From contig CAVUUV010000010.1 in assembly GCA_963744905.1 (NCBI GenBank), positions 31,916 to 95,915 of the forward strand: 64,000 nt of DNA, given 5' to 3'. The stretch comes from an uncultured Acidimicrobiia bacterium (GTDB lineage Bacteria; Actinomycetota; Acidimicrobiia; Spongiisociales; ZC4RG35). Below, piece by piece: positions 16,370 through 20,181 of this stretch. The notes under the pieces were generated by a model. It ran no database searches. It had not been told where the DNA came from and was given only the letters and a program-made list of their open reading frames with translations. The number at the start of each line of letters is the position of its first letter. Within the stretch, counting starts at the first letter, position 1. The position numbers and the translations under genes are program-made.

Positions 16370-17868
16370 CCCCCCACGCCCTCACCGCGGCCAGGGTGCT
16401 GGGCAGTTCCAGGCAGGGGGACTCGGTGGTGATCCAGGGGGGAAGGGTGGTGGAGGTCACCCATCGTTCCCGTCTGGGAGACATGGAATCGGTCGACTTG
16501 GCCGGGGCCACCATCGTTCCCGCCTTCGTCGACTCCCACATCCACCCGATCGGCTATGCCGCCCTGCTGGAGGGAACATCGCTCAAGGAGGCCTCGGATT
16601 TCGAGGACCTGACCGACCGCCTCCGCTCGGCGCGGGAGCGGATCCCCTCCGGCGGGGCCGTGGTGGCCCAGCGCCTGGATGACTCCCGTCTCGGGCGACT
16701 CCCCACCCGGGCGGACCTGGATCGAGCCGTTCCCGACCGCCCCCTCCTCGCCTATCGCTACTGCGGGCACATCGCAGTGGCCAACACCGCAGCACTGGAC
16801 CTGGCAGGTATCGGGCCCCACACGGCCGACCCCCGCGGGGGAAGCCTGGACCGGGATGACTCTGGAACCCCCACCGGAATTCTTCGGGAGACGGCGGTCG
16901 GATTGGTGGCGGAAGCCATCGACCCACTGCTTCCACCTCCGGAAGCAGAGGCGATCCTCAGGGCGATGAACGCCCTGGTCGCCACCGGGATGAGGCGGAT
17001 CGGAGCCATAGTCGCGGCGGGAGGGCCGCTCTGGTGTGGAGTCGGCAATGAGCTGGAAGCGTTGTGCGATCTGGCCGACGACCTACCCCTGGACGTGGAC
17101 GTGCTGGTCATCGCCGACACCCCCGAACAGCTCGATGGAGCCGCCGACAGGATCGTCTCAGCCGGAGGCCGGCTTCGTTTCAGGGGCTGGAAGGCGTTCG
17201 CCGACGGCAGCCTGGGGGGCCACACGGCGGCGATGTGGGAGCCCTTCGATGACGTCGACACCACCGGCACCCTGCGTCTCGACCCCGACGAGGCTGTGGC
17301 CATGGCCCGTCACGTGCTGGACCTGGGCGCCGAATCGGCCATCCACGCCATCGGTGACCGGGCCGTCGACGTGTGCCTGGACGTGTACCAGGAGCTGGTC
17401 GGAGAGGGATTCGATCCCACCCGAATGCGAATCGAGCACGCCTCGGTCGCCTCGGATGCGGCCATCGAGCGCATGGCGGACCTGGGAGTGGTGGCCTCGG
17501 TCCAGCCCGCCTTCCTCACCTCGGAGGCGGACTGGCTCCGTTCCCGGCTTGGAGAGAGAGCCCCCTACCGTTTCGCCACCATGCAGCGGGCCGGGGTGAG
17601 AATGATCGGCGGCTCGGATTGTCCGGTGGAGCGACCCGACCCGCTGGTCGGTATCGGTGCCGCCGTCAACCGGGAGGGCCTGAGTGACGATGAGCACCTC
17701 GACGTCGCCACCGCCCTGTCGCTGTTCGCCGCCCACGACCTGTCACCGGGCTCCCCCGCCGACCTGGTCGTCCTCGATGCCTCCCCCGACGACCCCTCCG
17801 CCACCATCCTCGCCGTCTACCACGACGGCCGGCCCCGCCAACTGACCCCGTTGCCCTGGCCGGGCTGA
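16366..17868 (+). CDS. Amidohydrolase (YtcJ-like)
   Basis: DSHIH, KAFADGSLG, HAIGDRA, RIEHAS, GSDCPV motifs; ATGA overlap with suhB. Confidence 0.85.
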   Translation: MTPHALTAARVLGSSRQGDSVVIQGGRVVEVTHRSRLGDMESVDLAGATIVPAFVDSHIHPIGYAALLEGTSLKEASDFEDLTDRLRSARERIPSGGAVVAQRLDDSRLGRLPTRADLDRAVPDRPLLAYRYCGHIAVANTAALDLAGIGPHTADPRGGSLDRDDSGTPTGILRETAVGLVAEAIDPLLPPPEAEAILRAMNALVATGMRRIGAIVAAGGPLWCGVGNELEALCDLADDLPLDVDVLVIADTPEQLDGAADRIVSAGGRLRFRGWKAFADGSLGGHTAAMWEPFDDVDTTGTLRLDPDEAVAMARHVLDLGAESAIHAIGDRAVDVCLDVYQELVGEGFDPTRMRIEHASVASDAAIERMADLGVVASVQPAFLTSEADWLRSRLGERAPYRFATMQRAGVRMIGGSDCPVERPDPLVGIGAAVNREGLSDDEHLDVATALSLFAAHDLSPGSPADLVVLDASPDDPSATILAVYHDGRPRQLTPLPWPG

Positions 17869-17941
17869 TTCGGCGTTTTTATCAGCGAAACGGGCCCCTG
17901 GAGGTCCCGTTTTGTAGGGGAGAATGCTGCGCCGGCTGTCG

Positions 17942-18172
17942 CTAGGAGCGCAGATGAGGGGCGATGTCGCTCTCGTAGTCGGCGTGACGCCCCAGCTCCT
18001 TCTTGGAAAAGATCCGCTCACCGTCGACCTCCACCTCGAAGACCCCGCCCGACGAGGGGATGAGATCCACCCGAAACGCTTGACCGAACTCGTCGAATAT
18101 CGCCTCCGCCGTGCTCACGGCACGGCTGGTGTAGTTTCAGGACCGGCAGAATTCGATGGTGATGGCTCGCAT
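17942..18172 (-). CDS. Rdx-family (SelW/SelT/SelH-like) selenoprotein, 76 aa, Sec12
   Basis: Manual translation MRAITIEFCRS-U-NYTSRAV...LIPSSGGVFEVEVDGERIFSKKELGRH...; in-frame TGA at 18137-18139 forms CxxU. Confidence 0.88.
18108..18126 (-). promoter_or_regulatory. Candidate bacterial SECIS hairpin
   Basis: GCCGUGC-CGUGA-GCACGGC stem-loop starting 10 nt after the UGA; G in the apical loop. Confidence 0.65.
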
Positions 18173-18228
18173 GGCCCGACCAGGGTACCCGGGTTGCACT
18201 AACCGCCCCCACCCAGGATCCTTACGAG

Positions 18229-20181
18229 ATGCACTTCGCCTCCACCGCCGAAGAGGTCGCCGCCATCACCGATGAGGCGCTGACCCAATCCGACACACTC
18301 ATCGACCAAGTGGTCAACGCACCGGACCGCACCTGGGACACGACGATGCGACCCCTCGACGACGTGGCCGGCCTCCTCGGCCGCGCCTTCGGCCGAGCCG
18401 CCTTCATGGGGTACGTACACACCGACGAGACGGTCCGGACCGCCGGACGTCAGGCCGAGGCCCGCATGCAGCAGTGGGCCGTGGAATTGATCTTCCGCGA
18501 CGACCTGTATCGAGCCGTGAGCGACTACGCCGCCACGGACGAGGCCGCTTCCCTGGAGGGAGAGCGGGCCAGATTCCTCGACTTTTCCCGCCGCGACCTG
18601 CGCAGGGCCGGTCATGAGCTCGATCCCGAGACCCGGGCAGAAGTGAAACGGCTCACTCAGAGACTGGTCGAGCTCGGGGTCGCATTCGAGTCGAACATCG
18701 CCGAGTTCGAGGACGGTCTCACCCTGACTCGTGAGGACCTGGCAGGACTGCCCGATTCCTACATCGAGGGCCTGGCGCCCGGTGAGGAAGAGGGAACCCT
18801 CGAAGTGACCATGGCCTACCCCGACGTAGTCCCCTTCCTGGACCAGGCCGAGCGACGCGATCTGCGCCAGGAGCTCGCCTTCAAGTTCAACAACCGGGCC
18901 ATGCCGGAAAACCGTGAGATCCTGGCCGAGGCGGTGGCCCTCCGGGCCCGCATCGCCGAACTGTTCGGTCAGGCTTCATGGGCCCATCACCAGCTCGAGG
19001 AGCAAATGGCCCGCCACCCCGAAGCGGTTGAGACCTTCTACGACAAACTCGTCCCACCCCTTACCGCCGCCGGCCGCGACGAGATCGCCGTCATGACGAA
19101 GATGCTGGCCGCCGACACCGGGGATCCCGACGCCGTGCTTCAGCCCTGGGACTGGCGCTTCTATCACACCAAGCTTCGACGGGAGAGACACGGAGTCGAC
19201 CCCAACGAGGTAGCCGAGTATTTCCCTCTCGAATCCGTCCTGGCCGGCCTGTTCGACATCACCGGAGACGTGTTCGGGCTGGCCTATGAGCCGGCTCAGG
19301 TGGAGGCCTGGCATCCCGACGTCCGCTCGTTCCACGTCCGCGACCGCGCCGATGGCCGATTCATCGCCACCTTCCACATGGACCTCTTTCCCCGGGAAGG
19401 CAAGTTCAGCCACGCCGCCGCCTTCCCCCTGGTGCCGGGAAGGCGCAACTCCGACGGCTCCTACCAAAACCCGGTGTCGGCCATCGTCGCCAACTTCACC
19501 AAGCCGTCGAAGGACCGTCCCTCACTTCTGAAACACGACGAGGTCGAGACCCTCTTCCACGAGTTCGGGCATATCCTCCACCAGGTCTTGACCACGGCGG
19601 ACCTGGTCAGGTTCTCGGGCTCCTCCACGGAAAGGGACTTCGTCGAGGCGCCGTCACAGATCATGGAACACTGGACCTGGCGTCCCGACGTCCTGGCCAC
19701 GTTCGCTCACCACTATCAGACCGGCGAGCCCTTCCCGGAGGACCTGTTGGCGGCGATGGTGGCAGCGCGAAACCTCAACATCGCACTCCTCACCCTGCGC
19801 CAACTCCAGTTCGGCAAACTCGATCTGGCCCTTCATGGTCCCGGAGCCGCCCGAGCCGACCTGGACCAGATCCACCGCTCCACAACCGAGGTAGCGCTGC
19901 TGCCGTTGCACGAAGGCACCTTCTTCCCCGCCAGCTTCGGCCACCTGCTGAGCGGATACGACGCCGGCTACTACGGGTACCTGTGGTCGGAGGTCTACGG
20001 CGACGACATGTTCAGCCGCTTCGAGCTGGAAGGGGTGACCGACCCCGCCGTGGGAGCCGAATACCGGACCAAGATCCTCGAAGCGGGAGGAACCCGCGAC
20101 GGCATGGACCTGCTGCGTGACTTCCTGGGCCGCGAGCCATCGAACGAGGCCTTCCTCCGCAAGCTGGGCCTGGCCGACTGA
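18229..20181 (+). CDS. M3 family metallopeptidase (thimet oligopeptidase-like)
   Basis: DLFPREGKFSHAA, FHEFGH, DFVEAPSQ, YDAGYYGYLW motifs. Confidence 0.92.
   Translation: MHFASTAEEVAAITDEALTQSDTLIDQVVNAPDRTWDTTMRPLDDVAGLLGRAFGRAAFMGYVHTDETVRTAGRQAEARMQQWAVELIFRDDLYRAVSDYAATDEAASLEGERARFLDFSRRDLRRAGHELDPETRAEVKRLTQRLVELGVAFESNIAEFEDGLTLTREDLAGLPDSYIEGLAPGEEEGTLEVTMAYPDVVPFLDQAERRDLRQELAFKFNNRAMPENREILAEAVALRARIAELFGQASWAHHQLEEQMARHPEAVETFYDKLVPPLTAAGRDEIAVMTKMLAADTGDPDAVLQPWDWRFYHTKLRRERHGVDPNEVAEYFPLESVLAGLFDITGDVFGLAYEPAQVEAWHPDVRSFHVRDRADGRFIATFHMDLFPREGKFSHAAAFPLVPGRRNSDGSYQNPVSAIVANFTKPSKDRPSLLKHDEVETLFHEFGHILHQVLTTADLVRFSGSSTERDFVEAPSQIMEHWTWRPDVLATFAHHYQTGEPFPEDLLAAMVAARNLNIALLTLRQLQFGKLDLALHGPGAARADLDQIHRSTTEVALLPLHEGTFFPASFGHLLSGYDAGYYGYLWSEVYGDDMFSRFELEGVTDPAVGAEYRTKILEAGGTRDGMDLLRDFLGREPSNEAFLRKLGLAD

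Follow-up and report, generated by a model that had tools for sequence, protein, structure and literature searches.

The window analysed here, a stretch of 64,000 nucleotides, carries on its minus strand a short reading frame that opens with ATG at 18170-18172, meets a TGA at 18137-18139 and closes with TAG at 17942-17944. When the TGA is written as U, the product has 76 residues and reads MRAITIEFCRS-U-NYTSRAV...GGVFEVEVDGERIFSKK...HLRS, or in full MRAITIEFCRS-U-NYTSRAVSTAEAIFDEFGQAFRVDLIPSSGGVFEVEVDGERIFSKKELGRHADYESDIAPHLRS. The features assigned to this frame, all on the minus strand, are given below together with the evidence on which each is based.

17942..18172, minus strand: complete coding sequence of a SelW-like/Rdx-family selenoprotein, 76 residues plus TAG, ATG start (Pfam, NCBIfam, fold)
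18137..18139, minus strand: in-frame TGA, residue U12, taken as selenocysteine (conservation, pairing with Cys, metagenome contigs)
18137..18148, minus strand: redox motif C9-R-S-U12 (CxxU) (invariance in alignment A3, position in the model)
18032..18049, minus strand: GGVFEV motif of the Rdx family, residues 42-47 (alignment A3)
17942..18118, minus strand: 58-aa frame with GTG start, the product of translation table 11 (list of open reading frames); an annotation artefact and no separate gene
18106..18129, minus strand: SECIS-like hairpin, whole element (fold, covariation, synonymous recoding)
18120-18126, 18115-18119 and 18108-18114, minus strand: 5' arm, loop CGUGA and 3' arm of the hairpin (fold)
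18128-18129 with 18106-18107, minus strand: outer C-G pairs of the hairpin, with a bulged A at 18127 (fold)

Translation with TGA as U returned exactly the coordinates and the 76-residue read-through peptide of a preliminary description of this DNA, which had proposed a selenoprotein gene missed by the list of open reading frames. The full-length gene is indeed absent from that list, but it was not wholly missed, since its 3' fragment (17942-18118, 58 aa, GTG start) is included. The N-terminal Met lies at the same place in close relatives, and this conservation supports the ATG as the start. No Shine-Dalgarno sequence is evident by eye before the ATG, a promoter scan found no sigma-70-type promoter, and a search of public runs listed no RNA runs containing the stretch.

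The gene is solitary, with an Amidohydro_3 gene converging on it and ending at 17868. On the other side, an M3 oligopeptidase gene runs divergently from a start at 18229, which is 56 nt from the ATG of the selenoprotein gene; the peptidase matches its Pfam model end to end. Both neighbours recur in the loci of relatives (the amidohydrolase in 14 of 29, the M3 peptidase in 10 of 29); because both are encoded on the opposite strand, they offer no clue to function. Two terminator-like hairpins, scored on the plus strand only, are found between the amidohydrolase and selenoprotein genes, at 17859-17874 and 17892-17907. The latter is palindromic and lies 35 nt beyond the selenoprotein stop, so that it could serve both directions; its T-run on the minus strand is short.

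Family, fold and redox motif

Profile searches, run with C substituted for U, place the 76-residue protein in the Rdx family. The Pfam model PF10262 (Rdx) matches residues 4-66, spanning the TGA, with an E-value of 3.7e-18 and 65.9 bits against a cut-off of 22.6, and the NCBIfam model TIGR02174 (CXXU_selWTH) matches with 56.2 bits against a cut-off of 34.2. By contrast, the equivalog model NF041051 (SelTWH_Campy) gives 75.7 bits, under its cut-off of 88, and the protein is therefore assigned to the same superfamily but not to that equivalog. In alignment A3, C9 and position 12 are invariant; within the GGVFEV motif, G43 is invariant, and F45 and V47 are kept by 90% or more of the sequences. 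The Rdx assignment of the preliminary description, made from a CxxU motif and a G.FEV motif, is thus upheld by two profiles over their cut-offs and by the presence of both C9-R-S-U12 and GGVFEV.

An AlphaFold2 model built from a 50-row alignment reaches a pLDDT of 96.1 and shows the topology strand, helix, three strands, then helices, with C9-x-x-U12 lying after strand 1 (residues 2-9) and before helix 1 (residues 15-32). Compared by Foldseek, this predicted model superposes on 2fa8 (TM 0.89, rmsd 1.2 A), on 2obk and 2p0g (TM 0.90), on MIEN1/C17orf37 (2ljk, TM 0.78) and on mouse SelW (2npb, TM 0.71), with thioredoxins more distant. Sequence matches to 2fa8, 3dex, 2ojl, 2oka, 2p0g, 2obk and MIEN1 2ljk range in E-value from 2.5e-8 to 6.9e-5. 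The predicted thioredoxin-like fold matches that of solved SelW-related proteins, among them Agrobacterium Atu0228 (2fa8) and proteins from Vibrio cholerae (2p0g), Pseudomonas (2obk, 2oka) and Streptomyces (SAV_2001, 3dex), to which the model compares with TM 0.81-0.90 and rmsd 1.1-2.4 A. Unlike the protein described here, the members of this solved set are of the Cys type (CxxC, according to the homologue tally given below) and have chains of 100-108 aa in the PDB sequence file, with 25-35% identity. Mammalian selenoprotein W (2npb) and MIEN1/C17orf37 (2ljk) likewise share the thioredoxin-like Rdx fold, with a CxxU or CxxC motif at the start of helix 1.

From this fold and motif, the protein is rather likely to be a thiol/selenol oxidoreductase that works through a C9-U12 selenenylsulfide. 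The redox role is put no higher than this because the accessible part of PMC1088965 calls the function of bacterial SelW-like proteins unclear.

Conservation of the UGA codon and of the hairpin that follows it

Among 61 genomes of the order, the genome under study included, 32 have a match to the protein, in a total of 34 match rows. Exactly one in-frame TGA is found in the matches of 31 genomes (31 of the 34 rows), and the three remaining rows, free of stops, correspond to a distinct CxxC paralogue that is present in the genome under study too. Thirty loci (L019-L048) were read, from this genome and 29 relatives, the match in genome G027 being counted from the table only. In all 30, the TGA occupies the fourth position of C-x-x-U and is followed by (N/G/K/D)-Y-x-x-R-A-V, and the 11 codons upstream of the TGA are kept as protein (IEF/YC..U). 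A pattern scan of one genome per species gave 553 relatives, of which the best 80 loci were examined, and the TGA stands at the CxxU codon in every one of these best 80 of 553 (75 by pattern, 5 by eye). The hosts of these best 80 of 553 are mostly Acidimicrobiia; the others include Thermoflexus and further Chloroflexota, Gemmatimonadota, and Melghirimyces and Kroppenstedtia of the Thermoactinomycetaceae. Cys at the Sec codon was found in none of the 110 loci (30 of the order plus the best 80 of 553, with some genomes in both sets).

At the protein level, a representative library of 1.84 billion proteins gave 262 matches at E <=0.001, and 149 of the best 150 of these 262 were tallied, the remaining one having already come from the word-indexed search described below. 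Residues 9-12 are covered by 123 of the 149 (best 150 of 262), with Cys at position 9 in 120 of 123. At position 12, the same 123 homologues (from the best 150 of 262) have Cys in 86, Trp in 24, Gly in 7, Ala in 4 and Ser in 2. The Cys/Sec pairing that the preliminary description had proposed to look for in homologues is therefore present, U aligning with Cys in 86 of the 123 homologues that are full-length over the motif (best 150 of 262). The Trp rows include the closest full-length matches among the best 150 of 262 and have flanks that likewise read NY..RAV; judging from these sequences, they may well be UGA codons rendered as Trp by gene callers, and the Gly rows are probably UGA translated by gene callers under another code. 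A word-indexed protein search returned mainly proteins of 55-58 aa with about 72% query coverage, the nearest homologues in the public protein sets, which have the same truncation as the table 11 frame; several of them carry the source name 'selenoprotein W-related protein'. Longer proteins (106-144 aa) with CxxG, CxxA or CxxS also occur among the homologues and may form a separate subfamily.

The Cys-form Rdx paralogue of the genome under study is encoded on contig 3, at 592326-592556 of the plus strand (locus L129, 227-457). It has 76 aa and a CVPC motif, and GAAAGGAG lies a few bases upstream of its ATG. The same type of paralogue is found in genomes G001 and G004. As it accompanies the UGA gene, the genome has both Sec and Cys members of the family.

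The codon was also followed in public metagenomes. The stretch is found in contigs of six runs; the four examined all belong to one study, and one of them is possibly the source of the assembly. According to the preliminary description, a TGC or TGT at this codon in reads would refute a selenoprotein. In the assembled contigs of the four runs from this study, which as assemblies can drop rare variants, no letter other than those of TGA was found at 18137-18139. A 321-nt piece from a second sample covers 17900-18220 without difference, and four diverged contigs, which show 8-12 differences within 79-111 nt, span at least 18084-18158. The strain-level variants of the related contigs, spread over 18098-18128, cluster in the hairpin. 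The change 18111 G>A turns a G-C pair of the core stem into a G-U pair, as in most relatives, with pairing kept, while 18115 T>C changes the last base of the loop, 18127 T>C the bulged A and 18128 G>C or G>T an outer pair; the remaining variants lie 3' of the stem.

Folding bore out the hairpin that had been proposed, with 7 bp and a start 10 nt past the UGA: the core stem GCCGUGC/GCACGGC has 7 bp and closes the loop CGUGA, and its first paired base lies 10 nt after the UGA. A 66-nt stretch compared with dinucleotide shuffles of this G+C-rich DNA gave z +0.26, 120 of 200 shuffles being at least as stable. Since this test was not significant, recoding and covariation controls were used instead. 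For the former, the 15 codons after the UGA were replaced synonymously 200 times per locus, with the codon usage of each locus. The 48 nt from the UGA of the gene itself fold at -15.3 kcal/mol against -10.4 +/- 2.9 kcal/mol for the recodings, a modest difference (z -1.68, with 6% as stable). The recoding z averages -1.21 across 96 distinct related loci; it is below 0 in 85 of the 96, and for 26 of the 96 no more than 5% of the recoded sequences are as stable. These results are support rather than proof, because the related loci are not independent of each other.

For the covariation score, the 30 loci (from the genome under study and 29 relatives) were aligned over 51 columns. The core stem is kept in 30 of 30, standard pairing is found at the six inner pairs in 29-30 of the 30 sequences, and compensatory changes occur at three pairs: 24-34 (U-A in 25, C-G in 5), 20-38 (G-C in 13, A-U in 7, unpaired in 10) and 23-35 (G-U in 24, G-C in 6). 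The covariation score of 0.170, against 0.128 +/- 0.010 in shuffles, was reached by none of 500 shuffles, and pairing is seen in 70.3% of cells, a share that drops to 24.7-42.8% if the 3' partner is shifted by 1-3 columns. Conservation is poor in the outer five pairs (unpaired in 16-22 of 30). Positions 2-3 of the loop are always G-U (CGUGA, GGUCG, GGUUC), a conservation that is not independent of the protein because the same bases open a conserved Val codon. The conservation of the stem is likewise partly driven by the protein, as it sits in the codons of the R-A-V-x-(M/T)-A segment. Gemmatimonadota and Thermoflexus have another local peptide and another stem sequence, and a hairpin with a G-U-containing loop is still found just after the UGA. 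At the corresponding place in Cys paralogues, of which there are three sequences only, too few to serve as a control, two have no hairpin and one has a different hairpin of 5 bp.

The G-U of the apical loop has a role in SelB binding in E. coli and Moorella. An Rfam scan of 17900-18250 at E <=10 gave no bacterial SECIS match, the only hit being a chance match to an sRNA at 13.9 bits against a threshold of 50. In the accessible parts of PMC1088965 and PMC1794560, bacterial SECIS elements are described as having a small apical loop with a G, and the element described here, a stem-loop that follows the UGA directly on its 3' side and whose small apical loop contains G, agrees with the description in PMC1088965. 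Its identification as a SECIS-like element is supported by the conservation of the hairpin.

Selenocysteine machinery and the reading of UGA

The assembly under study (3.58 Mb in 10 contigs, 95% complete) encodes the whole machinery needed. The preliminary description had stated that the organism decodes selenocysteine and had proposed a search for selA, selB, selC and selD; all four were found over their cut-offs in this one genome, and the statement is supported. selA (415.4 bits), selB (309.7 bits) and selD (391.9 bits) each match over the cut-off, and selB, encoded on the same strand as selA, begins 26 nt past the match of the latter (contig 6, 29345-32384), the two looking like an operon. 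selD and the gene for tRNA-Sec lie about 170 kb apart on contig 3. The tRNA scores 73.5 bits against a gathering score of 47, and ARAGORN calls it tRNA-SeC with anticodon TCA (UCA). The selD match has no in-frame stop, and a regular expression for the SelD active-site motif found no match in it. In addition, a molybdopterin formate-dehydrogenase-like gene of the FdhA type, on the plus strand of contig 3 at about 909 kb (locus L133, TGA at 1612-1614), has one in-frame TGA in the motif CNRT-U-HAPS, the classic Sec motif. A hairpin follows 12 nt past that UGA, with a 7-bp stem CGUCACC/GGUGACG and loop GGUCU, and this gene is likely to encode a second selenoprotein of the genome. Elsewhere TGA is the main stop of the window: it terminates 14 of the 19 long high-GC3 frames, including both neighbours of the selenoprotein gene, and the codon has therefore undergone no general reassignment.

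The Sec trait is near-universal around this organism. selA is over its cut-off in 54 of the 61 sampled genomes of the order, and it is found in 103 of 151 genomes of an even sample of the phylum, with a range per family from 0 of 9 to 10 of 10. The trait had been called patchily distributed in Actinomycetota, which holds at the level of families, the trait being common in both the phylum and the order. selA exceeds its cut-off in each of the 31 genomes with the UGA form, and the gene is found in none of the 7 genomes without selA, these genomes being kin and not independent. Some genomes flagged as unpublished are counted in these tallies (G039 among the matches and loci of the order, G034 and G050 in the selA count of the order, six in the sample of the phylum), and none of the tallies hinges on them.

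It is very probable that the locus is a monocistronic gene for a 76-residue SelW-like/Rdx protein of the thioredoxin fold, whose 12th codon, UGA, is decoded as selenocysteine. Under this reading, the hairpin that starts 10 nt past the UGA in the mRNA, with its 7-bp G+C-rich stem and 5-nt loop with G-U, would be the bacterial SECIS. Sec-tRNA(Sec) would be made by SelA with selenophosphate from SelD, and the organism's own SelB, carrying Sec-tRNA(Sec), would bind the hairpin, a step taken from the established bacterial pathway. SelB would thereby bring Sec-tRNA(Sec) to the ribosome at this UGA, and other UGA codons would stay stops. Both the insertion of Sec at U12 and the binding of the hairpin by SelB are putative. 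The redox centre C9-x-x-U12, placed where helix 1 begins, would then probably cycle between a selenolate-thiol and a selenenylsulfide form.

Three other explanations of the TGA have to be weighed. If it were a true stop, either the locus would be a pseudogene or its sole product would be that of the 58-aa frame with the GTG start at 18118. Table 11 does yield this frame, and public gene callers give the same products of 55-58 aa, but the 11 codons before the TGA are kept as protein in 30 of 30 loci and the Pfam model matches from residue 4. Moreover, a decaying pseudogene would not retain the TGA in 31 genomes and 80 further loci (best 80 of 553), and the 58-aa piece contains neither strand 1 of the predicted fold nor its redox motif. 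A true stop is accordingly considered very improbable. A dedicated tRNA-Sec(UCA) and the presence of selA, selB and selD in the genome speak against a reading of the UGA as Trp or Gly, through a changed code or general read-through, and so do the 14 of 19 long frames of the window that end in TGA, including that of the M3 peptidase matching Pfam end to end. Although homologues have W in 24 of 123 cases and G in 7 of 123 (best 150 of 262), these residues may reflect pipelines using codes 4 or 25, and the codon pairs with the catalytic Cys, not Trp, in 86 of the 123 (best 150 of 262), so that a reading as Trp or Gly is given even less weight than a true stop. The smallest probability of all is left to an assembly or sequencing error with a true codon TGC or TGT, in favour of which nothing was found, given the same TGA in independent genomes and no other letter at 18137-18139 in the contigs of four runs (one study, one run possibly the source).

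Relation to known systems

Decoding of the UGA as selenocysteine being the preferred reading, the locus is a genuine SelW-like selenoprotein gene with a SECIS in a selenium-using soil bacterium of the Acidimicrobiia. In the SECIS of the E. coli fdhF type, which is bound by SelB, a hairpin lies about 10-12 nt after the UGA and has a small apical loop exposing G-U. The hairpin described here has the same layout, and so does that of the FdhA-like gene of the same genome. Unlike in the fdhF-type element, the stem sequence here is a different one, no bulged U was identified, and SelB binding is putative.

SelW-like proteins with a CxxU motif are an established family of bacterial selenoproteins (PMC1088965 on the Sargasso Sea selenoproteome, PMC1794560 on the evolution of Sec in bacteria; Genome Biol 2005, 2006; Zhang and Gladyshev groups), as far as the available parts of these papers go. 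Because family, motif and type of SECIS have already been known since 2005-2006, the present case is a correct annotation rescue and brings little that is new in kind. The gene resembles the bacterial SelW-like selenoproteins of the accessible literature in its size (about 75 aa), in its CxxU motif and in a UGA with, immediately behind it, a stem-loop whose small apical loop contains G. The accessible part of PMC1794560 reports very few or no Cys homologues of SelW-like proteins in Sec-containing organisms, and the present gene is alike in its scarcity of Cys orthologues (0 of 110 loci). Its host belongs to the Acidimicrobiia, whereas the 'Actinobacteria' named in the accessible part of PMC1794560 are Symbiobacterium and Rubrobacter. 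SelW is not named in the accessible parts of the papers found on Acidimicrobiia selenoproteins; the species lists of the 2005-2006 papers might already include Acidimicrobiia. Unlike eukaryotic SelW, for which the available text of PMC1088965 describes a SECIS of another type in the 3'-UTR, the gene has its element inside the coding region, after the UGA.

With the frame restored, the catalytic half of the protein is regained and the organism can be recognised as a user of selenium. Most public homologues share the same table 11 truncation error, and the Sec form is near-exclusive in a SelW-like clade that extends across several phyla. An abundant uncultured order of soil and sediment actinobacteria appears to be selenium-dependent, and conserved cases of this kind offer a good starting point for working out what bacterial SelW-like proteins do physiologically. 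Taken jointly, the observations allow a broader proposal, which is offered tentatively and is on balance doubtful. The gene may belong to an obligate-Sec SelW-like clade comprising Acidimicrobiia, Thermoflexus-type Chloroflexota, Gemmatimonadota and Thermoactinomycetaceae, in which the stem is coded in the R-A-V-x-M-A segment; together with FdhA, it would perhaps largely explain the retention of the Sec machinery by nearly every genome of the order (54 of 61). In public protein sets, the clade would be mostly hidden as stumps of 55-58 aa or as CxxW mistranslations. Within this obligate-Sec proposal, the constraints on RNA and protein would be coupled, because the SECIS stem is written into the R-A-V-x-M-A codons at the start of helix 1.

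A parallel may exist in another order of the Acidimicrobiia, the Actinomarinales, for which the accessible part of a 2026 preprint reports universal Sec machinery (bioRxiv 10.64898/2026.04.03.716425). In the same part of bioRxiv 10.64898/2026.04.03.716425, the most abundant selenoprotein family of Actinomarina is given as uncharacterised, of 78 aa and without a UniRef hit; by its size, this could be the SelW-like family described here.
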